Shown here piece by piece: positions 7,398-61,031 of a stretch of 64,000 bases of DNA; the first letter of the stretch is position 1; each line of letters starts with the position of its first letter. A model generated the notes under the pieces. It searched no databases. It was not told the DNA's origin and saw only the letters and a list, made by a program, of their open reading frames with translations. This DNA is from a virus. The DNA is taken from positions 1 to 64,000 of the IMG/VR virus record IMGVR_UViG_3300020183_000007, one strand, 5' to 3'. Made by a program: the position numbers and the translations under genes.

Positions 7398-7923
7398 TAT
7401 CTACGCCATGAAATTCAGTGGGCTTAAAAACGCCGAATGACGATGGCGCACCATTAGCTTCGGTTCTTGGTCCGTGACCAGTATCAGAAAATATATTAGC
7501 GGATGCCACACCGTCAAAGATGTAGTTATTATACAGGGAGTAATTTGTATCTGCTGTTGGCGAATGTCCATAGTCTGATGAGAATACCTTTGCCCCATCA
7601 AGACCTTTGTACTCTAGCGGACGGAATCTTGCACCATCGTATGTTGCGCTGCCGTCAGCAAAAGTGCCCGAGAGTGGATGGACGTAAAGAGTGGTTCCAA
7701 TAAATACTTGCGACAAAAATCTATTACCAGGACGTTCACCAGTTCCAGGAATATGATCATTATCTGGGGCACCGTCTAATACGTGACTAGTGCTGTAAAG
7801 CGGGTAAAATGAATAGGTACCAGTACCCTTAGACTTTTCGGTCATAGTGGTGTGTGGGTTGACCATCTCGGATGATGATCTGCCCTTTAAAACTGGTCTG
7901 GGTCCTACGTAAAAAGTGGCCAT
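7291..7923 (-). CDS. Hypothetical protein with internal degenerate repeats, probably virion-associated
   Basis: 210 aa, strong AAGGAG RBS, last gene of the structural block. Confidence 0.75.
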   Translation of the reverse strand: MATFYVGPRPVLKGRSSSEMVNPHTTMTEKSKGTGTYSFYPLYSTSHVLDGAPDNDHIPGTGERPGNRFLSQVFIGTTLYVHPLSGTFADGSATYDGARFRPLEYKGLDGAKVFSSDYGHSPTADTNYSLYNNYIFDGVASANIFSDTGHGPRTEANGAPSSFGVFKPTEFHGVDSATVFTSNYGQANTTGDYGREKVQEWYGVPSAKAL

Positions 7924-9621: not shown

Positions 9622-11766
9622 TTATCCTTCTTCGTTGTGCTTGAATCTTATTCTTATATTATCTATTATTGGAGAAACTAATGGGTTTTTATCCCTATAC
9701 AAATCAGCCCTATATCTAACGGCCTTGACTAGTTTAGAATTTTCCCCATAATAAACTATTTTTGACTTACCCGATAAATGTCTAGAGCTTATTACTTCAC
9801 GAGCACCAAAAGCTTGATCTACGGTAAATACATAGTTTGTTTGTGCGACTCTCTGCCTAAACTCATATGGATCAAGGTATGAGTAATAGTCTAAAAATAT
9901 GGTACCATAATCAGATAATCTTCTTCCAGACATGATATTAAATGTAATTAAACCTTCAAAATTTTTGTCATATGTTATCTTAATATAGTTAATTCCAGTT
10001 TTGAAATTCCATTCAATATCTTGAGACAAAATACCAGATGGAAGATCCGCAATCAAAACATCGTTTAAATATATTGCTAATGTAAAATCTTCCCTACTTT
10101 TAGTTACAGTATGTATTACAGTATTATCTCTTGTGGCAGAAAGACTGGTTTCTAATAAGCCGGAACAAATTCCATTAAACCCAGGACTTATTGCGTTTAA
10201 CTGATTTTCAATAGGACTTGTTTGCGTAATATCTGAGGAAGACTGTGAGATTTTTTGTGACCATATATTTAAAGACTTATAATATTGCTCTGTTATGTTT
10301 GAATTAGAGGATCTAAGCATTGCGTAGTTTCTTATGGAATTTATACCATTTAGAATAAATGGCTGCTTTACTTCCTCTGCGCCAATATTGCAAACTCTAT
10401 AAACAGTTTTACCAGAATATATATTTGTATTTGGATTTAATTCATTAATATTTCCAGAAGTAGAATTTAAATCTATTAGCTCAAAACCGCCTACTTGTCC
10501 AGCACCGTCGTAAATTAATTTATTATTTTTATCGGTTGCTTGTAGATTTGCAATTGTTGAATTTGAATTAGATGAGGCATTTTCTGGATCAATTGCTATC
10601 CAATTAAAAGCGTCAATTCCGCTTGCTCCAGGAATATCTGCCGCAACAAAGTAGTTTACATCATATCCAGGACCAACCTGATGTTGGACGCTTAAGCCAA
10701 CAGATTCTATTGCCAATAAACCATTGTCCACTTCTGGTATTGATATTGGAGACGAAACTATTATAGCTGCTTTATCATGATATTTTGATCCAATATAAAT
10801 GTCTCTCAATCCAAATTCATAAATATAAGGTTTATTAGAGTTGTTTAAAACCTCATCAGGAAATGTTTTAAACAAAATTAAAGTAATACTTGAATAATTA
10901 AGAGGATTTAAATTGAAAGAAAATCTATCGTAGTCAGATCTAGTATCTTTAATGATATTTTGTTCTGGAACTTCTTTATTTAATGGTTTTGCTAAAATTC
11001 CAATTCCAACTCCAGAAGACGCCAATAAAGTACCTTCGATTTTAGAGATAGTATAATTAGAATTAACTGGTATAGTCATTATTGCGCTTACTACACCTAA
11101 TTCAGCGGATTCATATCTACATGACCAATATGTGTCGCTAAGTCCATCTGTTATATTTTCCAATTCAGAAATGACATATGGCGCAACAACTTGTACGCCA
11201 TTTAGGTCAACGGACAATGTAACACTGGAAGGATTGATCAATGAAGATGTTATCATATCAAATATGCCAGAATGTATAATTGGTATAGTCACGTTTCCAG
11301 CTTTGACATCAACAAACGCATCTGTTAAGGTTAAATCAATGTTTTTAGTTGATGTGAAGTTTTCTAAGTAAGAGTAATAAAATCCATCAGAATTATTTAT
11401 AGAAAAGATTAATTCATCAACTTTTCCTTCTAATTCTCGACGCTTAGATTTTAGATTATCCAACTTTTTATTAAGAGCTGTAATAGTCTCCATCATTTGA
11501 TAATTATTTTGAGTTGTACAATCATAAGCTACTTCTAAATTAAATAATGCCTTAATCATTAGCTCATTTAAATCTTCATGATCAAAAATATTTTTTCTTG
11601 TAAAAATATCATAATCCATAGGTATAGGATAACCTAGTTTATAGATAGAAAAATAATCATTAAAAAGTTTTCTTATCTCTATTTCACTTGGTCTAGTTCC
11701 AGATGAGTAAAGTAGTTTATTTACATTATTTAAAAACTTTATTTTCTGCATGCTTGCTATGTTCAT
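9622..11766 (-). CDS. Virion structural/fibre protein with a discoidin-like domain
   Basis: NITDGLSDTYW, YEFGLRDIYI, WIAIDP, PIIDNIRIRF. Confidence 0.7.
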   Translation of the reverse strand: MNIASMQKIKFLNNVNKLLYSSGTRPSEIEIRKLFNDYFSIYKLGYPIPMDYDIFTRKNIFDHEDLNELMIKALFNLEVAYDCTTQNNYQMMETITALNKKLDNLKSKRRELEGKVDELIFSINNSDGFYYSYLENFTSTKNIDLTLTDAFVDVKAGNVTIPIIHSGIFDMITSSLINPSSVTLSVDLNGVQVVAPYVISELENITDGLSDTYWSCRYESAELGVVSAIMTIPVNSNYTISKIEGTLLASSGVGIGILAKPLNKEVPEQNIIKDTRSDYDRFSFNLNPLNYSSITLILFKTFPDEVLNNSNKPYIYEFGLRDIYIGSKYHDKAAIIVSSPISIPEVDNGLLAIESVGLSVQHQVGPGYDVNYFVAADIPGASGIDAFNWIAIDPENASSNSNSTIANLQATDKNNKLIYDGAGQVGGFELIDLNSTSGNINELNPNTNIYSGKTVYRVCNIGAEEVKQPFILNGINSIRNYAMLRSSNSNITEQYYKSLNIWSQKISQSSSDITQTSPIENQLNAISPGFNGICSGLLETSLSATRDNTVIHTVTKSREDFTLAIYLNDVLIADLPSGILSQDIEWNFKTGINYIKITYDKNFEGLITFNIMSGRRLSDYGTIFLDYYSYLDPYEFRQRVAQTNYVFTVDQAFGAREVISSRHLSGKSKIVYYGENSKLVKAVRYRADLYRDKNPLVSPIIDNIRIRFKHNEEG

Positions 11767-27661: not shown

Positions 27662-28831
27662 TTAATAATTAGTTCCACCCATTATAACAGAACTCACACT
27701 TATCGCACCTGCTACTGGATATTTTTTAACTGTATCTAATGAGAAATCTGCAATTGGGAGAACTGAACCATCGGCTAACATTGCCGTTATATAGCATCCG
27801 CGAATATAATCTGATGATAACTTAATCTGCCTTTCAATTTCAGAAACTAATACTACATCTCCTACGGTTAATGAATTTAGATACCTCTTTACAAAAAGTG
27901 AAGCCTGATTTCTAATTCCACTAGCAAGATTTTCACTTAAGCCCATTGGTAAACTAACGGTTATCTCTACATTTATGCTAACTCGTTCGGCCATCCTAAC
28001 ATTAAATCTCACTCCAATTGGTTTGACAGCGCTAACTGCTATCATTACTCTTTGAGGTAAATTTGCCATATCAGTAGCTGTTTCTGGCACAATTATGACG
28101 TCACATGATCCAACTCCATATGTACCCTCCCTAATTCTAACGTCCCTAACTCCTCTAACCGCTAAGGCTGCAAATCTAATTGACTCAGCTGTACCTGGAG
28201 CTTTTGCTTTTACAGAAGCTATGATTCTTCTTCTAAAATTAGTATCTGATTCTGCGCTCGTGTTAGAGTGAACCTCTTTTGGATTGGAGCAAAATAATAT
28301 TACTCCAGCCGGAGAAAAAGCATTGTGTTTAGTTAAAGTGCTAACTGGCGCAACATAAGCGTTGTCTGTGAAATTTGGATCAACTCTTCCATAGGCCCTG
28401 GTGGATCCTTTGCCAATAATTACATCTCCAGCTAATTTATATGTGTATTGCTTTGTGATAAAATTAGATACATCATTATAAACTAATGTTCCAGACGGTA
28501 TTGTCACATCTGTACTATGCGGTTTATCAATAAAAAATTGAATATTAAAAGATTCACGATCCTGGCTTGAATAGTCGCTAACATTTCTTCTAGTTATACC
28601 ATACAAATCGCCTATAAGATCTAAATTTCTCCCGGATGCGGTCATAAGATCTCCCTGCATAAGGTTGAATCTCAGTGCCTCATACAAGTCCGACACTTCA
28701 CTGGTGAAGGCTTCAGCAAAAGCTCTAGCTATAGAGCCTGGATAAACAGCCGATATGCCTGCATTTTTTTGTAAACCATTTAAAACGCTGACTAATATGT
28801 CAGCTTTATTTTTTATTCCGTACATTGGCAT
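27662..28831 (-). CDS. Baseplate J-like wedge protein
   Basis: ASGRNLDLIGDLYGITRR, VTIPSGTLV, AESDTNFRRRI, GTAESIRFAALAVRGVRDV. Confidence 0.9.
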   Translation of the reverse strand: MPMYGIKNKADILVSVLNGLQKNAGISAVYPGSIARAFAEAFTSEVSDLYEALRFNLMQGDLMTASGRNLDLIGDLYGITRRNVSDYSSQDRESFNIQFFIDKPHSTDVTIPSGTLVYNDVSNFITKQYTYKLAGDVIIGKGSTRAYGRVDPNFTDNAYVAPVSTLTKHNAFSPAGVILFCSNPKEVHSNTSAESDTNFRRRIIASVKAKAPGTAESIRFAALAVRGVRDVRIREGTYGVGSCDVIIVPETATDMANLPQRVMIAVSAVKPIGVRFNVRMAERVSINVEITVSLPMGLSENLASGIRNQASLFVKRYLNSLTVGDVVLVSEIERQIKLSSDYIRGCYITAMLADGSVLPIADFSLDTVKKYPVAGAISVSSVIMGGTNY

Positions 28832-44180: not shown

Positions 44181-47100
44181 TTAAAATGAGCTAGCGAGCT
44201 GCTGATATGGATCAGACGTCACACTTGGGATCCTATTATACATAGTACTGTTAATCGGTCCATTAGTAAGTCCAGAAGCTGCTTGTTGAAATCTTTCAAC
44301 ATCCTGCCTAGAACCATATAAGGAAACCTTGTAACTCATTCCAGAAGCAGATGCCTGTCCACCAATTTGGGGAACAGAAACATTAGAAGTTGGATATCCC
44401 TGCTCATAAGCTGATCCACCAGGAAGAAGCGGAGGACCCGCAGCGTCTTCTGTTGTTTTATCTTTTTTATTTTGATATAAAAAGCTTCCCGCTATCAATA
44501 GTCCTGCTGCGATGGCAGTTTTTTGAACAGATGGCTTAGAAAACTGCTCTGTTAAATAATCCATATCTAAACGTTTAAATTTAGATGGATTTACATTGGA
44601 TGGAGATTGATCTTCAAGATCTCTCAAAACATTACCAACTATACCCTTTGGTTTATCTTTGCGTCCGACGACTTTATCTGCAGATATTTGACCATTCAAA
44701 AAATCGTCTATTGCGGGATCCAAAATGTCTCTTTCATATAGAGCCCTAGATCTTATGGCATTAGATATGGTTTTTATAGTTTCATCTGTAGTATCTTCCA
44801 CACCTTTTCCTACAGCTTGACTTAATTGTTGCATGTCGATACCTAAATCTGCAAACATTCCAGAAACATCGCCATATTGAGAAAGGTCTAAAGCCCTTTG
44901 TTTGGTGTTGCCTTCAATAATATCCGTAAGCAGTAACTCCCTCGTGGATGATGTGGCGCTAAAGAAATTGTCAACAATATTTTTGACTTGTAAATTTGAA
45001 GTTGCCTTTGTGTAGGCTGCTTTATTCCTTTTCGCCATGTTAAGTCTGGCAAAAAGATTAGCAAATTCTTCATTTGAATCCTCGGTAAGATCAGTTAACT
45101 GCTCAAAAACATATGAGCTCATTCCACGATCTGAAGCTTCTAATTGAAGTGCATTTAATAAATTAAATCCAGTTAAAGGTCTTTGTGATCTAACTTCATC
45201 AATTCCTCTTAATAAATTGTCTCCTAATTCAGTTTTTAATATTTCAGCTCTTAATCGAGCCTGTTCAAAGCCCATAGATAGCTCTTGCCTTCTGGCAGCA
45301 TCGATAAACTGTCCATCCTCTATGCCTTCTCTAAATAATTTTTGTGCGTCTCTATAAGCTGCATTGGCTTCCATAAGTTCGTCAAAAATATTCTGATTTG
45401 CATCTAAAATAGCTTTTGCAGATAATTGTGCTTCAGTAGCGTTTTTGCCCATGCCAGCAGTAAGCGTATCTCTTAGTTCTTTCATATTATCGCCAAATCT
45501 TTTTCTCGCTGCGTTGAAACTATCTTGAGCTTGCTGAGCAATTTCAATTGTTTTAGAAAGATTACCTCTACCAATAACTCCTATATCTGTTAGGGCCGTT
45601 ATTATTTTAGCTTTAGAAGGGGCATCTCCGCCTTCAAACAGATTCTTTAATTTACTAAGATCTTCATCAGTTTGTATTCCTTCAGCAATCCTAGCCTCAG
45701 CGCCCTTTATATAACTCTCAGCAAAAGCTGTAAGGTCATCTTTGTTTAACTTTCCAAAATCAATGAGAGCCTTGTCGAGAACAAACTGTTGCCCCCCTCT
45801 ATGTTGTAGATATCCGAACATTTCCCCATATTGACTCACAGCTTCTGCGCCGCTTGTTTCTAGATCAAAATTATTTCCATACATTCTTCTAAAAATATCC
45901 ATGCCATATCTAGTATCTGCTGCTGCTTCTGCCTCCATTTTTAATTTCAGTCTTCCAGAAGTAAATGTTTGGGTCATGTCTACTGCGGTTTCCGATGATG
46001 GAAAACCTACCAATAGCCCTTTCCCATTGTCATATCGCCTAAGTGCATCGTTAATTGCTTGATCAGATCCAAAAGCTTTTTCAAATTGAGCCAAACCATC
46101 TGCAATTACCGTAGCTCTGTTAACATGCTTACCAAGATTGTTAGCGTTTTCCGTAGATGCTTTTTCCATGCTTTCAAGATAGAATTTATTAAATGCAATA
46201 GCTTTTTTATTTTTATCTAATTGAAAACTATCTAAAGTTTCACGAAAAGCTTTTGAAGCTTTCTTTATATCTGCCTGTGCCTGTTCTAATGCCGCCAGCT
46301 GCACTGGATCATCGTAAACAGAACCAGGTATAAACTGACCGGAATATGCCGGACCTTTTAATGCTTGTATCTGATCTCTGATAGCACCTAGTTGCGTTTT
46401 TTGCTGATCTGTCATAAGATGCTCATACATCCGATAAATATCATCTTCAAGATTCATTTCCATAACTTCAGTCTTTAACTTTTGAAAGCCAAGGGAAGTT
46501 AAGCCCGGATCAACGCCAGCAAAATCAACTAATCTAGATCCTGCAAAAAAATCAACTGTACTAGCACCCTGCTTTAGGACGCCTAGTGATTCGAAATATG
46601 CTCTATCAAAAGTTCTTGCTTTTCCACCATACAATCTATCTCTAACATCTATAATTGTTTCCTCAAGTTCATCTAATAATGCAGACTGATCAATTCGTGT
46701 CATTTCTTCTGATGTGAATTTTCCAGATAAATTTTGCTGTAAAATATTTAATCTGTCTAAGGTTGGAGAACTACCAGAACCTGCCAATTTTTCTTTTTCA
46801 TCTAAAATCATTTGATCTAAAGTTTTCATAAAATCTGCGTTATGACCAAATAATTCTTGATAACTTTCTATATCATTAAAGCGAACAAACCCAATCATTT
46901 CGCCTGCACCCGTGGGCTGACGAGCCATGGCCATAGCCAAACGTCTTTTGCCATTAGACATGTAGGTTCCCAAAACTGGTAGCCCTTTGTCGTCAAGGTC
47001 GAATCCACCAAGAGCATGGTGGAACCTAATAACATCCCTTTCGCTCATTAATAAGTTGTGATTAGAAAATCTTACACGAGTTGTACTGAGACTGAATCCT

Positions 47101-49256
47101 TCATCCATCATTATATTTTGATCAGTCATATCCAAGAACATTCTGCCACTTGATATACCAATCTGGGTAGATTCTGCGTTCAAAGCAAATCTATACACAT
47201 CGGGCATTACTGGTAGTGGTATTCCCTTTTTAATCTTAAAAAATTCTTTTTGAGCAAAATCTATAATTCTATTCATAGCCCTGGGATGCTGATCTAGCGG
47301 AATGCCACTTCTATGGATTTCAAGTATCTCTTGCGCCATATTCCTATTCATTAGTTGAGAAAATTGCTGAGTGTCTAATATATCTTCAGATTGGAAATTT
47401 GCAGCGCTTAATAGGGATTGATAAAATTTTCCATTCTCATCAATCCTATTTGCTTTTAACATCTCGTTAAATTCTTTTTGTAAAGCAAGAGAATACTCTC
47501 TACCCAATTGTTGCGATTGTGGCGAACCAAATACTGCTGCATGAAACGCATCAAGCATAGGATCGGCATAGACTGCACCTTTAGACTCTCCGGTACCAGA
47601 AATGTTTAGAATGTCTGTTAAACCAGATATTCTAGTTTCTCTTTTCGTTGTTGCCTTTGGTGCAATAATAGAATATTTTGTATATCTTCCAGTAAACTCA
47701 ACACTCATTGCTGCGCCTTTTAGAGAGAATATTCTAGCGGGGCGCGCTTGATCTCCCGCATCAAAGACAACATTTCCACGAACAGTTATTTGAGACAAGC
47801 CCTTAGATTTATCTAATTGGCTCGAGGATCTCTGAATTTCTCTTTTTTTCAAAAGAATATCTTGTTTTTCTAATCTACTAGTAGCCTGTGCATACTGTTT
47901 ATCTAATTCATCTATCTCAGATTGATACCCTTTTCGAATAGCTTTAGTATAGGAATCATTTATCAACATAGAACCATCTGACCCCTTTTCCATCTCATCA
48001 AGTAAAACGTCAATAATGTTAAACTTTTTATCTATTTCACTTAAAGCCTTTTCATCGCCAGCTGCACCTTTTTCTAACCTATCTTTCAATAAACCAAGCT
48101 TACTTTTCAAAACATCTGTACCATATTTGCCAACAGTAATATCTACATCTCCACTGTCTATAGCGTCTTGCATAGCTATCTTTAGATAATTGCCAATATC
48201 AGAATATACTTCAGTTTTTATTGGCCCTGGCCCAGTCTGTCCACGAATTACCTCATCTAAAATTATTTTATAAAAATCCTTAGATCTATCTTGACCCCCA
48301 ATCATCCAAGAATCTCTTATTCTTTGCGCTGCGTCTGCGGCTTTTTCTGCATTGTTCATTCCTGAAACATTTTTCAATGTATCAATATCTAGAGCTAACC
48401 CCAGTGCCTCAAAAACTGGATCAGTGTTAAGAATTGAATCAGCGAATGATAACCCAGGCTTACCAACTTCATCCAATATTGATTCTAGAGCACCACCAGA
48501 AACAGAAACCTCTCTTGGAGACAAAACGCCACGCAATCTTTTATCCAACTTTTGAATTAAAGAAGCTACTTTTTTATTTCCCGACCTCAAAGCGTCCTCT
48601 AAAACATCTGGATCTATAGCAGATACATTTGCTGCCTGCATCACTTCCAATGTTTGATCTAAACCTAGAACTTGTTTTTTGCCAGCAATTGTCGCAACCA
48701 AGTTCAAAGCAATTCCGCCATCATCCGTAGGTAAGAGTAAACCATAGCCTTTTTGCTTCTGTGCATCAAAAAAGGCTTTTAGCGCTTCAGTGCCCTGCTG
48801 AGTATCTAGTCCACCTTTATGAATAGCGATATTCATCTCTAAAGCTTCTATACCAAAAAGATTTTGCTGTATGGCGACTTTTTCCATATCCCTTAAAACC
48901 TGACCATATCCCCTATATACAACGGGGACATCATCTTTTGATAATCTGTAAACTTCAGTAATATGCAGCGAAGAAAAATATTCTATAGCGTCGTTAACAG
49001 AGTTAAATACTTTCCTGCCTTCATCTGGATCAAAATAAGATGACCTATATTTTAAAATGTTATCTGCTGGATCGACAAACGGTTCTATTAACCTTTTTTG
49101 GCCAGTAGGTATTTTTCCTATTATTCTTCTAGCTGCTCTAACTTGTTTCTCTGGAGATAAAGGAGACAAGTACGCAGACAAATAGTCGCTAAAGGATTCA
49201 TACTCAGGAATCTCTTGTCTTCGTTTTTCTAGAAAACTAGCTATTTTCCCCAACAT
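44181..49256 (-). CDS. Putative single-subunit two-barrel (YonO/RdRP-like) RNA polymerase, probably virion-associated
   Basis: SDG (D427), QITVR (R493), KG (K513), TTK (K538), GGFDLDD (D753-D756), RQP (R779), NLGKHVN..VIAD (N1040), SETAVD (D1093). Confidence 0.68.
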   Translation of the reverse strand: MLGKIASFLEKRRQEIPEYESFSDYLSAYLSPLSPEKQVRAARRIIGKIPTGQKRLIEPFVDPADNILKYRSSYFDPDEGRKVFNSVNDAIEYFSSLHITEVYRLSKDDVPVVYRGYGQVLRDMEKVAIQQNLFGIEALEMNIAIHKGGLDTQQGTEALKAFFDAQKQKGYGLLLPTDDGGIALNLVATIAGKKQVLGLDQTLEVMQAANVSAIDPDVLEDALRSGNKKVASLIQKLDKRLRGVLSPREVSVSGGALESILDEVGKPGLSFADSILNTDPVFEALGLALDIDTLKNVSGMNNAEKAADAAQRIRDSWMIGGQDRSKDFYKIILDEVIRGQTGPGPIKTEVYSDIGNYLKIAMQDAIDSGDVDITVGKYGTDVLKSKLGLLKDRLEKGAAGDEKALSEIDKKFNIIDVLLDEMEKGSDGSMLINDSYTKAIRKGYQSEIDELDKQYAQATSRLEKQDILLKKREIQRSSSQLDKSKGLSQITVRGNVVFDAGDQARPARIFSLKGAAMSVEFTGRYTKYSIIAPKATTKRETRISGLTDILNISGTGESKGAVYADPMLDAFHAAVFGSPQSQQLGREYSLALQKEFNEMLKANRIDENGKFYQSLLSAANFQSEDILDTQQFSQLMNRNMAQEILEIHRSGIPLDQHPRAMNRIIDFAQKEFFKIKKGIPLPVMPDVYRFALNAESTQIGISSGRMFLDMTDQNIMMDEGFSLSTTRVRFSNHNLLMSERDVIRFHHALGGFDLDDKGLPVLGTYMSNGKRRLAMAMARQPTGAGEMIGFVRFNDIESYQELFGHNADFMKTLDQMILDEKEKLAGSGSSPTLDRLNILQQNLSGKFTSEEMTRIDQSALLDELEETIIDVRDRLYGGKARTFDRAYFESLGVLKQGASTVDFFAGSRLVDFAGVDPGLTSLGFQKLKTEVMEMNLEDDIYRMYEHLMTDQQKTQLGAIRDQIQALKGPAYSGQFIPGSVYDDPVQLAALEQAQADIKKASKAFRETLDSFQLDKNKKAIAFNKFYLESMEKASTENANNLGKHVNRATVIADGLAQFEKAFGSDQAINDALRRYDNGKGLLVGFPSSETAVDMTQTFTSGRLKLKMEAEAAADTRYGMDIFRRMYGNNFDLETSGAEAVSQYGEMFGYLQHRGGQQFVLDKALIDFGKLNKDDLTAFAESYIKGAEARIAEGIQTDEDLSKLKNLFEGGDAPSKAKIITALTDIGVIGRGNLSKTIEIAQQAQDSFNAARKRFGDNMKELRDTLTAGMGKNATEAQLSAKAILDANQNIFDELMEANAAYRDAQKLFREGIEDGQFIDAARRQELSMGFEQARLRAEILKTELGDNLLRGIDEVRSQRPLTGFNLLNALQLEASDRGMSSYVFEQLTDLTEDSNEEFANLFARLNMAKRNKAAYTKATSNLQVKNIVDNFFSATSSTRELLLTDIIEGNTKQRALDLSQYGDVSGMFADLGIDMQQLSQAVGKGVEDTTDETIKTISNAIRSRALYERDILDPAIDDFLNGQISADKVVGRKDKPKGIVGNVLRDLEDQSPSNVNPSKFKRLDMDYLTEQFSKPSVQKTAIAAGLLIAGSFLYQNKKDKTTEDAAGPPLLPGGSAYEQGYPTSNVSVPQIGGQASASGMSYKVSLYGSRQDVERFQQAASGLTNGPINSTMYNRIPSVTSDPYQQLASSF

Positions 49257-55967: not shown

Positions 55968-56597
55968 TTATCTTATACCCCACAGCTTTTGGGCAATAGG
56001 ATCTTCATATACAGCCTCGCCATCTTTCTTGGAAAGATTATGTCTAGCTGCAGAAATCTTCTGTTTTTGCTCTTCTTCTTCGGGATCTATCAACTGAATC
56101 TTTAAGTCAGTAGATTCCATACCATTAGCATTTTGTTTTATTTCAATTATCTTTTCAGATAAAGCTACTTTTTCTGCTAATTCAGAGAAAGTCATATTCT
56201 CCAAATCTTCTGGAGTATATGATGTTATAGTAGCTAAAACAAATGCTTTCATTAAATTTTTAACTTCAGTTGCTTCAAACCTTTTTTCATCAAGAATTCT
56301 CTTAGCAATTGAAGCACTGAAGAAGCCAGATATATCTAATATTTCGGAAGACAAGTTGGCAACAATACCCGGGGGTATCGTCATCGTATCGAAACCCTCC
56401 GGGTATATTACGGCAAATTCGAGAATAATATCTTCGATGTCAGAAGAGTCAACATCTTCTAGGGTTTTTAGATAAAGAATTTTATCGTATTCTTTGAAGG
56501 TTAATTCTCTGAAAACAACAGTTTCATTTTTTATATTAACACTATAAATGTTGCCGTATTTATTTTTCAAAGAAAAAATAAAATCAGCTGTTAACAT
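55968..56597 (-). CDS. Tail assembly chaperone paralogue 2 (C-terminally extended)
   Basis: KNKYGNIY..VVFRELTFKEY..AVIYP..GIVANLSSEILDISGF. Confidence 0.7.
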   Translation of the reverse strand: MLTADFIFSLKNKYGNIYSVNIKNETVVFRELTFKEYDKILYLKTLEDVDSSDIEDIILEFAVIYPEGFDTMTIPPGIVANLSSEILDISGFFSASIAKRILDEKRFEATEVKNLMKAFVLATITSYTPEDLENMTFSELAEKVALSEKIIEIKQNANGMESTDLKIQLIDPEEEEQKQKISAARHNLSKKDGEAVYEDPIAQKLWGIR

Positions 56598-56598
56598 T

Positions 56599-57156
56599 TT
56601 ATAACTGTCTTACCTCTAGCGCTACGAATCCAGAAGCCTCTAATACCTCCTGGGATATTAGTGATGGCAAGCCAGCCATAAACCCTACTGCATTGGTCTT
56701 ATCAAATCTAGGGTAGAGCATACACAGTTCAGCTATAGTTTCTTCGTTCCAAAGATTAGCCTCAGCTGTAGATAACTGACCAGACTGAACCAATTGCTCC
56801 ATCTTCTTAACAATTTGCTTGTATTCAGCTCTATTAAGAACACGCCACACAACATGCTTATCATATGTGATTGAGGTGACATAAATGTCGCCGTACTGCT
56901 TTTTCCACTCTTTGACAATACCGGCTTTAGGACCGTCTTTCCAGATTTCTTCTTCGTCTGGGACCTGTTCTATGTCGGTATACTGCTTTTGTTCCTCTTC
57001 AGCGATATCTGCCAAAAACTGCTCATCATCTTCCAATTCAACATCCATAGAATTTATATCATCAGATCCTGAAAGGGTAAAATTAATTTCCTGAGAAGTA
57101 TTTGTATCTTCTATTTCTAGATTCTGTAAAACAACTTTTCTTTTATTTTCCATCAT
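56599..57156 (-). CDS. Tail assembly chaperone paralogue 1
   Basis: WKKQYGDIY..VVWRVLNRAEY..CMLYP..GLPSLISQEVLEASGF; acidic N-terminus. Confidence 0.72.
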   Translation of the reverse strand: MMENKRKVVLQNLEIEDTNTSQEINFTLSGSDDINSMDVELEDDEQFLADIAEEEQKQYTDIEQVPDEEEIWKDGPKAGIVKEWKKQYGDIYVTSITYDKHVVWRVLNRAEYKQIVKKMEQLVQSGQLSTAEANLWNEETIAELCMLYPRFDKTNAVGFMAGLPSLISQEVLEASGFVALEVRQL

Positions 57157-57192: not shown

Positions 57193-58194
57193 TCATATTA
57201 TAGGAGCTAAACCACCTAGTGTTTGACCCAAATTTGTTACATAATTTAAATTCTCCGCAATTGCCAAAGGTGCCAACGGACCAGAAGAAACATTTTCAGC
57301 CGAAGCTCTCTTTATAAAAGTTGTGTCTACCTCTGTGAAATAATGATCTCTTGCCATAAATTGATAAGTTTCCACAACTGGCTGCCCACCTGGGGCATAT
57401 ACTGTTGACATATTAATCAGGTTTACTTCTTGTATTACAATTTTCATTGGAGAACTTAAAGAAGTGGATTTAACCACTCTTTGATTAACGTCAGAAAGCA
57501 TTGTTCTAGAAAGATTATCTAAAGAACCATTAAATTCTAGATCATTTGTATCTGTCTGAAATAGGTTTTTGGGCGACAAAGCGACTTCCTCCATGCCATA
57601 AACTATAACAAGGTTAAAAGGAGGATGTGCGCTAAATATATTTCTATTAGAGTCTATGATATTCTTAAAATATGGATCATCTGTAATTCTGTCTAACTGA
57701 CCTCTTTCCCAATATTTATCAATTAAAGCCTCATCTTCTTCTGTTTCTAATTGGCTTCTTAAATTAGATAGAACTCTGCCTGGAGCACTTTTGTTATTTG
57801 CTAGTGCAGATCTAGTTGATGCTGCCTTCTCTAGTAATTCCGTCATCCTTCTCGGGTATCTAGTGTATAAGGCTATTTCTCCAGTTATAATTCTAGTTCC
57901 ATACATTATAGCATCGTAATTGTATGACCAAAATCCATATAATGGCTGTTTTTCTTGACGTACATTGAAAGCAAAAGTTGCTATATCTAATTCATCATTG
58001 GGATCAAATAATCCATCAATAAAAATTTTGATATCCTCTCCGCTAAAGTAATAATCGTAATAGTTGCTAAATCTTCGATCTGTAGAATTACCACCACTCC
58101 AAGTTAAGTCTAGTCTTTCATTGATTGGATTAAATTCTTTTCTAGCGTTACTGGAAAAAATTCCAGGAAAAACCTGTGCAATTGGTGCTGGCAT
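57193..58194 (-). CDS. Tail tube paralogue 3 (minor/initiator)
   Basis: YFSGEDIKIFIDG, FAFNVRQEKQPLYGF, GTRIITGEI, PPFNLVIVYG, EQ/ET-Y-x-FMARD-type C-terminal motif. Confidence 0.7.
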   Translation of the reverse strand: MPAPIAQVFPGIFSSNARKEFNPINERLDLTWSGGNSTDRRFSNYYDYYFSGEDIKIFIDGLFDPNDELDIATFAFNVRQEKQPLYGFWSYNYDAIMYGTRIITGEIALYTRYPRRMTELLEKAASTRSALANNKSAPGRVLSNLRSQLETEEDEALIDKYWERGQLDRITDDPYFKNIIDSNRNIFSAHPPFNLVIVYGMEEVALSPKNLFQTDTNDLEFNGSLDNLSRTMLSDVNQRVVKSTSLSSPMKIVIQEVNLINMSTVYAPGGQPVVETYQFMARDHYFTEVDTTFIKRASAENVSSGPLAPLAIAENLNYVTNLGQTLGGLAPII

Positions 58195-58206
58195 GATATT
58201 ACCTTT

Positions 58207-59004
58207 CTAGAGACGGAATCTTCGAGGAGGCACAACCTCAACCGGAACTGTTGGTCTATTGTAGTTTGTATTATAATATTCAGTTTCTTCAACTTGCTCC
58301 TGCAGAGCAGCTAGATCAGCAATAATTAAATCACCAAAAACATTTGTACTGATTTGATCCCTAGCTTTCATCTCATCAGTGTAGGATGTGTCCCTGGAAA
58401 CTGTACTATCATCAGGCATTCTGACCAGAGGTTGTATGCCCCTAGCCATATAGGTGTATGTTTGTTCGGTAATTAAGTCATCTATAGATAGAGTCTGCCC
58501 TTCATCGACTATTGTTACTCCAAATATTTTCATCTTTGAACCAATACCATATTCATTGAAGAATGTTATAACAATATCAAATGGGGGCAACATATCTGCC
58601 AATGGAGCAAAGTACCCGGTTTTTCTTGCTAAATATTGCTTAAATTCTTTTATACGATAAAAAGCGTACTCGTTAAAAACTGTAAATATTAAGCTTCCAG
58701 CAATTGTTCTGCCACCTTTTATAAATCCCCTAACGTTAACATGACCTAGCGTTCTTACTGGAGAATTCTCTCTGTGTATAGAATAGGAAATTGTTTGCAG
58801 TTCTCCAAGATTTATAGAATCTCCTTGAGACTCGACATTTCCATCTGGACCTATTACTGGTAAAACAATTGTGGCAACAGCGTCTGCGCCAGAATATGAC
58901 ATTGTAGATAAATATTTTTCCCAGTCATAAAGATCATTGCCACTTTGCGGAGCGGGTTCTTGTTGTTTACTTTTTCTAAAAGTATATGTTTTAATTTGTC
59001 CCAT
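58207..59004 (-). CDS. Tail tube paralogue 2
   Basis: SYSGAD, LQTISYSIHRENSPVRTLG, GGRTIAGSLIFTVF, PPFDIVITFFNEYG, EQTYTYMARG. Likely start 59004 after GGAG. Confidence 0.78.
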   Translation of the reverse strand: MGQIKTYTFRKSKQQEPAPQSGNDLYDWEKYLSTMSYSGADAVATIVLPVIGPDGNVESQGDSINLGELQTISYSIHRENSPVRTLGHVNVRGFIKGGRTIAGSLIFTVFNEYAFYRIKEFKQYLARKTGYFAPLADMLPPFDIVITFFNEYGIGSKMKIFGVTIVDEGQTLSIDDLITEQTYTYMARGIQPLVRMPDDSTVSRDTSYTDEMKARDQISTNVFGDLIIADLAALQEQVEETEYYNTNYNRPTVPVEVVPPRRFRL

Positions 59005-59014
59005 TAAAATCTCC

Positions 59015-59059
59015 AAAAAATAAATAAATGCATGGAAGATACCTCCCATGCACTTATTT
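59015..59059 (-). terminator. Intrinsic terminator after the major tube gene
   Basis: AAAUAAGUGCAUGGGAG-GUAU-CUUCCAUGCAUUUAUUU stem followed by AUUUUUU on the minus strand. Confidence 0.8.
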
Positions 59060-59077
59060 CGGCGACACTAGAAATTA

Positions 59078-59740
59078 TCAGGGTCTGATGATTGTTGTGT
59101 TCAATCCCTCAGGTGGTATTCCTGCCAAGTTAGTTGGATCAACAAGAGTGTCATTTCTAATTGTGTACATGGGACCAAGTTCACGGGCAACATATGTCAT
59201 TGTTTCTTCGATAACAATGTCATCCATTGAGGCGCCAGAACCCTCGTTGAGAAGCTCTACACCGAAGATCGATCTAACGGCAGCCTGGCCATACTCATTG
59301 GCAAATGTTACAGTAATGTCAAAGGGTGGAATTTGGTCAGCGTAGAAAGGAACCTTTCTAACTACTCCAGTCTTCTGCTCGTTTACTTCAGCGATGCCTC
59401 TTCTATGGCCATTATCGCCAGGAAGGGTATTGTGACTTCTGGTATAGAAGTCCATAGGTCTGTTTTGCGAGTAGTTCTGATCTAACATCTTGTATAGAGC
59501 TGGGCGATCAAAGACTGTAAAAATTAATGAACCAGCGATACCTCTTTTGCCTCTCGAAAAAGAGCGTGGGTTAGGTGATCCCATGGTGTAGATTGGGGCC
59601 TTTTCTCTGGTGACCGAGAAAGTAATGCCGGAAAGGGCACCTATTTCTACTCCACCAAATGTAGCTACAATGTCTGCACCTGAGAATGTGGTATAAGTAT
59701 TAAGATACTTGTTAACTGATGTATATTCCTCTGCTGCCAT
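59078..59740 (-). CDS. Major tail tube protein
   Basis: TFSGADIVATF, ITFSVTREKAPIYTMGS, GKRGIAGSLIFTVF, PPFDITVTFANEYG, EETMTYVAR; follows the sheath gene; strong GGAGG RBS. Confidence 0.85.
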   Translation of the reverse strand: MAAEEYTSVNKYLNTYTTFSGADIVATFGGVEIGALSGITFSVTREKAPIYTMGSPNPRSFSRGKRGIAGSLIFTVFDRPALYKMLDQNYSQNRPMDFYTRSHNTLPGDNGHRRGIAEVNEQKTGVVRKVPFYADQIPPFDITVTFANEYGQAAVRSIFGVELLNEGSGASMDDIVIEETMTYVARELGPMYTIRNDTLVDPTNLAGIPPEGLNTTIIRP

Positions 59741-59768: not shown

Positions 59769-61031
59769 TTATAGATTAATGGCTACTCTGACTTCGATCT
59801 CCTTGAGCTCGAAGGCAGGTGTTAAAATGAGGTCTACAATCGCCTTGTTTTCGTTTGGTATGTATGATACTGTAAAGTCGCTACCAAGCAAGGCTCCTAC
59901 GATTTGCATACCTCTCAAGCCAGAAGTGATAGCTGTTTCCATCGCATTTCTTGTTTGAATGTTTGATGGTTCGCCAACAAATCTCTGGCAAGCTTGTCTT
60001 ACAATAGATGTTGCGTCGTCTATAATTCTCTTTGTTGAAAGACGAGTATAGTCTGATGTTGCCCAAGCAAATGTTAAGCCTTCTCCGAATACTGGAATCT
60101 TATTAAAGTTTATAATAACAGTATTTACGCCCTTGCCTCCAAGAGTGCTCTGCTGAGTTCTTGAGGGGGCATAACGAACAGCCTCTACGTTGAAAAGAGC
60201 TTTATTTACTAGTGAACTAAATGAAGGAAGTAAACTTAGAGCGCCAGCTACATGGGCTGCACCGTTAGAGTAACCAAACTCTGTTGTACCAGACTGGTAA
60301 TTTACAGGCTTAATCTCTGCTGCGACTACAACAACATATGGTCCAGTTTCCTTGAAAAGCGCGCTAGCGTTTCTGTTAGGTAGGTCTGTCAAAGCTAAGT
60401 GCGCAGAAACCTGACCGGGTGTCATAACCTCTGTTGTGCTGTAGTATGGCTTTATGCCCATAATTGCAATGCAAGGATTAATATTTTCTGAGATATCCTT
60501 AACTTTTGCGGCGACCTGGTAAGCCCAGTTGCTTAGAACTGTTGAGGTATTGTCTGCAACGAAGCCGTATGATGCATCATCGCTGGGTGTAGCTGGGTTT
60601 TGCCAGTCGTTTGGATGAGCCCCTCTACCCCAAGGAATAATCATGTCTGGGATAGCAGCTTCGGCAGCAGTAAATGCTGCATCGAAAACTGATCCACCAT
60701 AAGAAGAACTTGTTACAGTTCCTGTGGCTGCAGGGCTAGTGGGGTCGGTATCCCATTTGGTGTCAGAAGGAAGTGGAACAATAAAAATTCTTCCAGCTCC
60801 AGCTAAAACAAGCTCCAAATAAGCTCGGTGAGCGTCTGAGCCGTCACCAAATGCGGTGATAGCATCTGCCTCATTGGTAACTCTGACGACGTCAAGATCT
60901 GCTACTGAACCAGTATTATTTGCTGTGCTACGACGTGCTATTGCAACTATTCTAGGACCAACAGGTGTATCCTGACGTGATACACTGTAGAAGCGATCTC
61001 TAATTAATGTTTTTACTCCAGGTATAGCCAT
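59769..61031 (-). CDS. Tail sheath protein
   Basis: MAIPGVKTLIRD N-terminus; C-terminal RLSTKRIIDDATSIVRQACQRFVGEP...VDLILTPAFELKEIEVRV. Confidence 0.88.
   Translation of the reverse strand: MAIPGVKTLIRDRFYSVSRQDTPVGPRIVAIARRSTANNTGSVADLDVVRVTNEADAITAFGDGSDAHRAYLELVLAGAGRIFIVPLPSDTKWDTDPTSPAATGTVTSSSYGGSVFDAAFTAAEAAIPDMIIPWGRGAHPNDWQNPATPSDDASYGFVADNTSTVLSNWAYQVAAKVKDISENINPCIAIMGIKPYYSTTEVMTPGQVSAHLALTDLPNRNASALFKETGPYVVVVAAEIKPVNYQSGTTEFGYSNGAAHVAGALSLLPSFSSLVNKALFNVEAVRYAPSRTQQSTLGGKGVNTVIINFNKIPVFGEGLTFAWATSDYTRLSTKRIIDDATSIVRQACQRFVGEPSNIQTRNAMETAITSGLRGMQIVGALLGSDFTVSYIPNENKAIVDLILTPAFELKEIEVRVAINL

Follow-up and report, generated by a model that had tools for sequence, protein, structure and literature searches.

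The window analysed here comprises the first 64 kb (64,000 nucleotides) of the 179.6-kb virus record IMGVR_UViG_3300020183_000007 from IMG/VR, which is 85% complete by estimate. Its minus strand carries an unbroken structural block, in which fibre-sized open reading frames (ORFs) also occur, and one gene of this block, at positions 44181..49256, is open throughout and translates cleanly into a protein of 1691 amino acids (aa; P0001). The protein contains no cysteine. A preliminary description of the DNA had read it as a virion-delivered RNA polymerase with two double-psi barrels on a single chain, quoting eight short strings, most of which were compared with motifs of QDE-1, plant RNA-dependent RNA polymerases (RDRs) and the phage enzyme YonO. 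All eight strings occur exactly once and at the residues claimed, including QITVR (489-493), SLKG (511-514), IIAPKATTK (530-538) and LGGFDLDD (749-756). The coordinates of the gene, its parts and its neighbours are compiled in Table 1.

Table 1. Features of the 1691-aa gene and of the surrounding tail block, in window coordinates.
Feature	Coordinates	Strand	Remarks
Whole gene, 1691 aa, stop codon included	44181..49256	-	100% self-match in the 179.6-kb record
N-terminal region, aa 1-400	48057..49256	-	conserved within the family
Polymerase-like core, aa 400-1120	45897..48059	-	AlphaFold2 model m0027faa87dd2; QDE-1/RDR2 the top multi-domain matches
SDGSMLIN strand, aa 426-433, with D427-G428	47958..47981	-	D427 125/125, G428 124/125; near QDE-1 D709 by range
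Barrel B-like beta region, aa 489-566: R493, K513, K538, VYxDP	47559..47792	-	AlphaFold2 model and alignment
Barrel A-like beta region, aa 673-792, R689 included	46881..47240	-	AlphaFold2 model and alignment
Acid loop LGGFDLDDK, aa 749-757	46986..47012	-	D753, D755 and D756 each 127/127; helix before, strand after
R779-Q-P781...E786, Pro-gate-like R-x-P	46899..46922	-	R, P and E each 127/127; 23 aa past the acid loop
Bridge-helix-like NNLGKHVNRATVIAD, aa 1039-1053	46098..46142	-	G1042 124/127, N1046 125/127; compare QDE-1 L1082/N1087/R1091, RDR2 G886
Trigger-loop-like SETAVDMTQT, aa 1088-1097	45966..45995	-	D1093 125/125; compare QDE-1 V1115-D1116
C-terminal region, aa 1120-1691	44184..45899	-	weak language-model likeness to tape measure clusters
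Short hydrophobic helix TAIAAGLLIAGSFLY, aa 1580-1594	44475..44519	-	
P/G-rich C-terminal tail, GPPLLPGGSAYE...NSTMYNRIP...DPY	44184..44474	-	identity still ~49% in very remote members
Sheath	59769-61031	-	
Three tube-like paralogues	57193-59740	-	
Paralogous pair of small genes, 209 and 185 aa, tail-chaperone position	55968..57156	-	
Upstream neighbour, 2231 aa	49259..55954	-	homologue of 0305phi8-36 ORF145 virion structural protein
Downstream neighbour, 148 aa	43724..44170	-	always follows the 1691-aa gene
Hub/lysin giant, 3718 aa	32559..43715	-	homologue of 0305phi8-36 ORF147 endolysin; matches a 1954-position 'endolysin' PHROG
Baseplate wedge gene	27662-28831	-	

The protein belongs to a sizeable family, here called the GGFDLDD family after its acid loop. 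We found homologues in 23 clusters of a 5.8-billion-protein set and in 139 relatives in IMG/VR, on contigs of up to 216 kb. A profile search of 1.84 billion representatives returned 229 matches, 163 of them below 1e-30 and most of them 1500-1750 aa long. The core (aa 400-1120) of 126 representatives was then aligned with the window protein, giving 127 sequences with a median identity to the latter of 23%. At least 95% conservation was found at only 17 of the 721 core positions: D427, G428, R493, K513, K538, P658, R689, G750, D753, D755, D756, R779, P781, E786, G1042, N1046 and D1093. Smaller family alignments gave agreeing conservation. The residues that had been named by analogy with QDE-1/RDR motifs (D427, R493, K513, K538 and D753/D755/D756) are the near-invariant ones of the family, and the strings proposed as bridge helix and trigger loop hold G1042/N1046 and D1093, respectively. 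Homologues thus retain the residues of the proposed active site, including K513 and K538 of the first beta-rich region (126/127 each) and R493 (122/127). With so few positions kept at such low identity, the pattern fits an active site rather than a structural ruler or scaffold and, judged from the alignments, the series of motifs is beyond chance.

Outside the core, the N-terminal region could be slab-like; in 24 homologues its residues D178, G180, K236, K239, R240, R248 and D308 are invariant. Near the other end of the protein, the hydrophobic helix described earlier is present, but it is short and stays below a Kyte-Doolittle mean of 1.5-1.6 in windows of 18-19 residues, so that the label 'transmembrane-like' is a weak one. 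The P/G-rich tail is real, and conservation across the whole protein peaks in the final ~110 residues, as would be expected of a segment docking at the tail tip. In several relatives (L064:11505-11560 and L027:11586-11614; also L029, L036, L037, L047 and L057) the family gene lies in two overlapping frames, and a break just after barrel A is common to one subclade. The homology of the second frame extends upstream of any start codon. We do not take such genes as a sign of separate subunits, since the homology runs on in the other frame, which looks like a frameshift, either real or from assembly.

The near-invariant residues follow the order of a known enzyme. In QDE-1, functional residues are D709, which is the fourth Asp of the metal site, R738, K743 and K767 of barrel 1, the Pro-gate R962-x-P964, the acid loop D1007, D1009 and D1011, L1082, N1087 and R1091 of the bridge helix, and V1115, D1116 and K1119 of the trigger loop (PMC9508822). 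The corresponding elements of RDR2 are the acid loop D830-834, G886 of the bridge and K923 of the trigger (PMC8713982). In the GGFDLDD family we found D427, then R493, K513 and K538, then D753, D755 and D756, then L1041, G1042 and N1046, and finally V1092 and D1093. Seven conserved elements are collinear with QDE-1 over ~670 residues. Mapped by the end-points of VIA ranges rather than by a residue-level alignment, D427 falls within ~2 residues of QDE-1 D709, D1093 within ~3 of D1116, and the acid loop within ~3-5 of both QDE-1 D1007-1011 and RDR2 830-834. The spacing from K513 to K538 is 25, as had been claimed, versus 24 between the two lysines of QDE-1.

Structure prediction points in the same direction. 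An AlphaFold2 model of the 721-aa core (m0027faa87dd2), based on a 37-sequence core alignment, had a predicted local distance difference test score (pLDDT) of 72 and a predicted template-modelling score of 0.66. It contains two beta-rich regions (aa 490-563 and 673-792) with helices between and after them; GGFDLDD is flanked by a helix directly before and a strand after, the arrangement of known two-barrel members. Long helices that carry G1042 and N1046 are predicted further on, followed by V/I1092-D1093; mapped by range, these elements coincide with the QDE-1 bridge helix and with V1115-D1116. When this model was compared with the PDB by Foldseek, QDE-1 took ranks 1-7 (best E 0.025, probability 0.57, ~700 columns) and RDR2 ranks 9 and 28. 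Across the fold searches, an enzyme of the P23-45 gp64 type was also among the matches. In BFVD, two uncultured-phage proteins matched at E 2e-6 and 5e-6, crAss-like giant proteins appeared weakly at ranks 6, 7, 20 and 21 (probability 0.08-0.35), and an entry named 'RNA dependent RNA polymerase' stood at rank 33. A second model, folded separately from aa 480-800 as a two-barrel sub-model, had a pLDDT of 68. QDE-1 and RDR2 came first among the multi-domain matches of each of these two independent models, and no glycosylase or barrel of the lytic-transglycosylase type was present in the fold lists shown. The modelled resemblance to QDE-1/RDR2 is therefore reproducible and specific, yet moderate by score alone: the fold proposed in the preliminary description leads the Foldseek list, but with a best E of only 0.025, and the sub-model returned no Foldseek matches. 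A wide VIA search with the 721-aa model was uninformative, its list being filled by helical hairpins, and the ESM Atlas gave no match by features or by shape.

Several results speak against a polymerase, to which neither sequence nor profile methods linked the family. Pfam and PHROGs searches with the 1691-aa protein were empty, as was Pfam on 37 aligned family members at E up to 10, and a sequence-profile search of the PDB returned merely chance coiled-coil matches. Alignment by hhalign to P23-45 gp96, YonO, a YonO family alignment and the family of gp036 of Acinetobacter phage ME3 gave probabilities below 1%. No fold match reached E 0.001 in Foldseek against the PDB, and all fold scores lie below conventional significance. 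The acid loop reads G-G-F-D-L-D-D, that is DxDD in place of the defining DxDxD. An invariant R779-Q-P781 sits 23 residues after this loop and not before it, where the Pro-gate is expected; upstream of the loop R689 (121/127) stands alone, with no accompanying Pro. Nor is the Lys of the trigger loop (QDE-1 K1119, RDR2 K923) conserved across the family. Finally, the gene is the fastest-evolving of the tail block, with 24-35% identity versus 40-62% for its neighbours.

The DxDD loop is not disqualifying, since just two invariant Asp at the corresponding loop suffice for the two-barrel DNA polymerase PolD. It does set the protein apart from the RDR/YonO family, under which we do not file it because the defining DxDxD signature is missing. 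Kinship of the YonO type, as suggested earlier, found no signal in profile comparison either, the 127-sequence query profile scoring a probability of 0.07% against the YonO family alignment. PF05183 (RdRP) had no match in the protein, in the 37 aligned members or in the genome record, and tblastn against 50,697 phage records (INPHARED) found none for the protein. In the literature searched, no published description of the GGFDLDD family was found, and the terms 'two-barrel' and 'tape measure' are joined solely in the P23-45 paper.

The genomic surroundings bear on the proposed delivery. The order sheath, tube, 185-aa gene, 209-aa gene, 2231-aa gene, 1691-aa gene, 148-aa gene, 3718-aa gene is common to all 12 of the diverse related loci compared, and the 2231-aa neighbour is also tightly kept in length (2188-2231 aa). 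The two genes at the chaperone position are paralogous (32% identity over 111 residues, E 1e-6) and are kept in all relatives examined. Among cultured phages, the terminase and the 2231-aa protein match solely in the 0305phi8-36 group, which comprises 0305phi8-36, Moorella phage MTATph1, the Bacillus phages WH1, Edson and KLEB27-3, and Acinetobacter phage ME3. In the record of 0305phi8-36, ORF145 is directly followed by ORF146, annotated 'hypothetical tape measure' and detected in virions by mass spectrometry. The 1691-aa gene lies downstream of the ORF145 homologue and hence in the tape-measure slot. The placement in the tail module given by the preliminary description agrees with this conserved block, but its more precise location 'between tape measure and hub' is probably wrong. 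The C-terminal third of the protein has a language-model likeness to a tape measure cluster (0.87), which is weak and serves as a lead only. Because of the slot, this C-terminal look-alike and the conserved end, a fusion is at least as likely as the stand-alone enzyme proposed earlier; the protein may combine a polymerase with a tape-measure-like part in the manner of P23-45 gp96.

Giant proteins also fill this slot in three cultured relatives, where they lie between the ORF145-like protein and the hub. ME3 gp036 (1603 aa, L087:11415-16226) contains TREPAQG, then 42-47 residues, then GD-x-D-Q-D (GGDHDQD), invariant in 8 homologues; it is similar in size to the window protein and bears a hydrophobic helix ~100 aa from its C-terminus. 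In the Bacillus phages, vB_BauM_KLEB27-3 gp034 (L086:13292-20596) has ADYDGD and vB_BceM_WH1 gp095 (L085:12562-20109) has ADHDGD, with weak matches to the active-site part of PF00623 (E 0.015 and 0.09, respectively). All three proteins are annotated just as hypothetical or structural, with no polymerase named. Their signatures, which by sequence are canonical for two-barrel enzymes, strengthen the polymerase reading of the slot and make these giants candidate tail-delivered RNA polymerases in their own right. Unlike in the GGFDLDD family, the signatures lie in the C-terminal third, and there is no detectable sequence or profile similarity between the two: hhalign found none to the slot proteins of WH1, KLEB27-3 and ME3 or to the N- and C-terminal parts of the ME3 gp036 family, and a weak full-length alignment to ME3 gp036 did not pair the acid loops. 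Family hidden Markov models likewise had no match to 0305phi8-36 ORF146, Moorella phage CDS0027 or other slot proteins. ORF146 itself holds the corresponding place within the conserved block of tail genes but is 2537 aa long, shares no similarity with the GGFDLDD family and contains no DxDxD or DxDD loop.

Phage 0305phi8-36, which belongs to the same supergroup as the window phage, instead encodes a YonO-like gene with a PF05183 match, well away from the tail genes (209484-211547 on the minus strand, 1246-aa frame, E 1e-20). PF05183 is absent from WH1, KLEB27-3, ME3, MTATph1, the present record and four relatives, of which two are 100% complete. Sigma-70 region 2 (PF04542) is absent from the present record and from those same four relatives, and neither PF00623 nor any other ORF of the DxDxD type was found in this record, with its estimated completeness of 85%. 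The GGFDLDD clade, ME3, WH1 and KLEB27-3 thus stand opposite to 0305phi8-36. This distribution, in which a genome has either a slot protein with a polymerase signature or a YonO-like gene at another site, is suggestive, though it covers few genomes and MTATph1 fits neither state.

Comparison with characterised systems shows where the protein would stand. P23-45 gp96 is a virion RNA polymerase fused to the tape measure that transcribes the first genes (PMC10770324); the likeness lies in a two-barrel module, here predicted, within a giant protein at the tape-measure position, and in the role proposed, tail delivery and first-gene transcription. QDE-1 and RDR2 are the best structural matches and share the order Asp, Arg/Lys/Lys, acid loop, bridge Gly/Asn and trigger Val-Asp. 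They differ in being eukaryotic silencing enzymes with the loops DYDGD and DLDGD and a conserved trigger Lys; in QDE-1, moreover, R962-x-P964 stands 43-45 residues before the loop, and the PF05183 profile finds nothing in the 1691-aa protein. An R-x-P ~45 residues before the acid loop is common to QDE-1, beta-prime and the ME3 family, whereas it follows the loop in the GGFDLDD family. YonO of SPbeta and its counterpart in 0305phi8-36 are, like the enzyme proposed here, single-chain two-barrel RNA polymerases encoded by phages, and belong to the RDR-like branch; they differ in lying away from tail genes, matching PF05183, carrying DNDGD and showing no profile-profile similarity to the GGFDLDD family. 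The gp66 protein of the crAss-like phage phi14:2 is a virion-packaged single-chain two-barrel enzyme nearly undetectable by sequence, packaging being only proposed for the window protein; it differs in belonging to a podovirus, in being ejected cargo rather than a tape-measure-slot protein, and in its DFDxD motif.

Elsewhere in the 179.6-kb record, beyond the window, a GC-rich island spans positions 95,000-109,000 (L076:11000-20000, L077:1-5000) with 46-55% GC versus 36% for the genome. It holds duplicated cassettes, PcfJ-like paralogues among them, and at least 13 plus-strand copies of TTGAGGATAGACC, each placed after a GC hairpin and a T-run and ~40 nt before a ribosome-binding site and ATG. 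In the two closest relatives TTGAGGATAGACC is likewise clustered, at the ends of the contigs, but distant ones show no such clusters. The array could be a set of phage-specific promoters or of terminator-promoter junctions, and it might serve the proposed tail-module polymerase as template. Three elements within record positions 109,273-114,787 exceed the Rfam gathering score: a Pistol ribozyme at 48 bits, a short element resembling tmRNA at 54.6 bits, and tRNA-Arg(TCT); they lie at L077:5273-5340, 7515-7592 and 10714-10787. A full-length RecA gene (PF00154, E 9e-117; record 91,834-92,853 on the plus strand, L076:7834-8853) opens the plus-strand block, directly following a 473-bp divergent intergenic region at 91.4-91.8 kb.

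We propose that the gene product would be a giant tail-associated virion protein in a large clade of uncultured myoviruses of 180-216 kb, remote relatives of Bacillus phage 0305phi8-36. About 700 residues at the centre of the protein would form a very diverged single-chain two-barrel polymerase, with a predicted shape closest to QDE-1 and plant RDR2. Barrel B would provide R493, K513 and K538 and barrel A the acid loop GGFDLDD, while the bridge-like helix (G1042, N1046) and the trigger-like loop (V1092-D1093) would close the site and D427 would serve as fourth carboxylate. Anchoring in the lumen or at the tip of the tail would fall to the conserved C-terminal part. During infection, the protein would leave the virion through the contracted tail, before the DNA or along with it, and would then transcribe the first phage genes independently of the host polymerase, like P23-45 gp96. 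Metal binding by DxDD, synthesis of RNA and not DNA, the type of template, packaging, ejection and timing are what we infer within this scheme. The core is probably a genuine two-barrel polymerase fold. Packaging in the tail and ejection we consider fairly likely, and catalytic activity of the core slightly favoured. For the joint reading, an injected early-transcription enzyme, the chances appear about even.

The displaced R-x-P leaves room for a variant of this proposal. A permuted or rewired barrel A is possible from the sequences, and the protein could represent a rewired two-barrel branch in which a DxDD metal loop is combined with an R-x-P from the post-loop hairpin instead of the first barrel A strand, in a permuted or strand-swapped barrel delivered by a contractile tail and maybe reading a phage promoter such as the TTGAGGATAGACC array. 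We regard this variant as speculative and rather unlikely. If true, it would mean a catalytic architecture unseen in any characterised polymerase, across a whole clade of aquatic jumbo-sized myoviruses.

Among the alternatives to an active RNA polymerase, the one that survives best is an exapted, catalytically dead two-barrel fold in a tail-lumen, tape-measure-like or pilot protein, which would bind DNA or assist envelope passage and make no RNA. The DxDD loop, the displaced R-x-P and the lost trigger Lys would suit such a protein, as would the tape-measure slot, the weak C-terminal likeness to tape measure clusters and the fast evolution of the gene. Dead domains lose their catalytic residues, however, whereas here the loop Asp are kept in 127/127, the Lys in 126/127 and D427 and D1093 in 125/125 at 23% identity, and PolD offers a working precedent for the loop; we consider a dead fold unlikely. 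Still less probable is a two-barrel enzyme of other chemistry or role, for example a primase, a polymerase that makes DNA or depends on RNA, or a late enzyme that stays outside the virion although encoded in the tail operon. The superfamily does include the DNA polymerase PolD and QDE-1, which accepts both DNA and RNA templates and whose R962 reads the 2'-OH (PMC9508822), so that the rewired loop and R-Q-P could alter sugar selection, and the best structural matches are RNA-dependent enzymes. Against this, the strict position in the tail block and the conserved C-terminal tail favour a virion protein, and R779 and D1093, both invariant, correspond to the two residues by which QDE-1 keeps the ribose in the 3'-endo form. 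Lytic transglycosylases with double-psi barrels and a catalytic Asp occur, and wall-degrading domains are frequent in tail-tip proteins. The protein might have no polymerase fold at all, the QDE-1/RDR2 likeness arising from a medium-confidence model with sub-significant fold scores and from motif picking; it would then be a tail enzyme of another kind, such as one with an MltA/3D/RlpA-type transglycosylase barrel, or have a new fold. We judge this the least probable explanation, given the concordant ranking of both models without a glycosylase in their lists, the seven collinear elements and the lysin module already present in the neighbouring 3718-aa protein.

Delivery of a phage-encoded RNA polymerase into the cell is known from few phages, namely N4, phiKZ-like phages, crAss-like phages and P23-45, and each such case reshaped views of early infection and host take-over. 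Should the core be active, such delivery would extend to uncultured contractile-tailed phages of 180-216 kb, a large and widespread group, by means of an enzyme that annotation pipelines do not recognise and whose active site departs from the DxDxD and R-x-P rule. Acinetobacter phage ME3 and the Bacillus phages WH1 and KLEB27-3 provide cultured entry points to the question, and the tape-measure slot would then be a recurrent home for injected polymerases.

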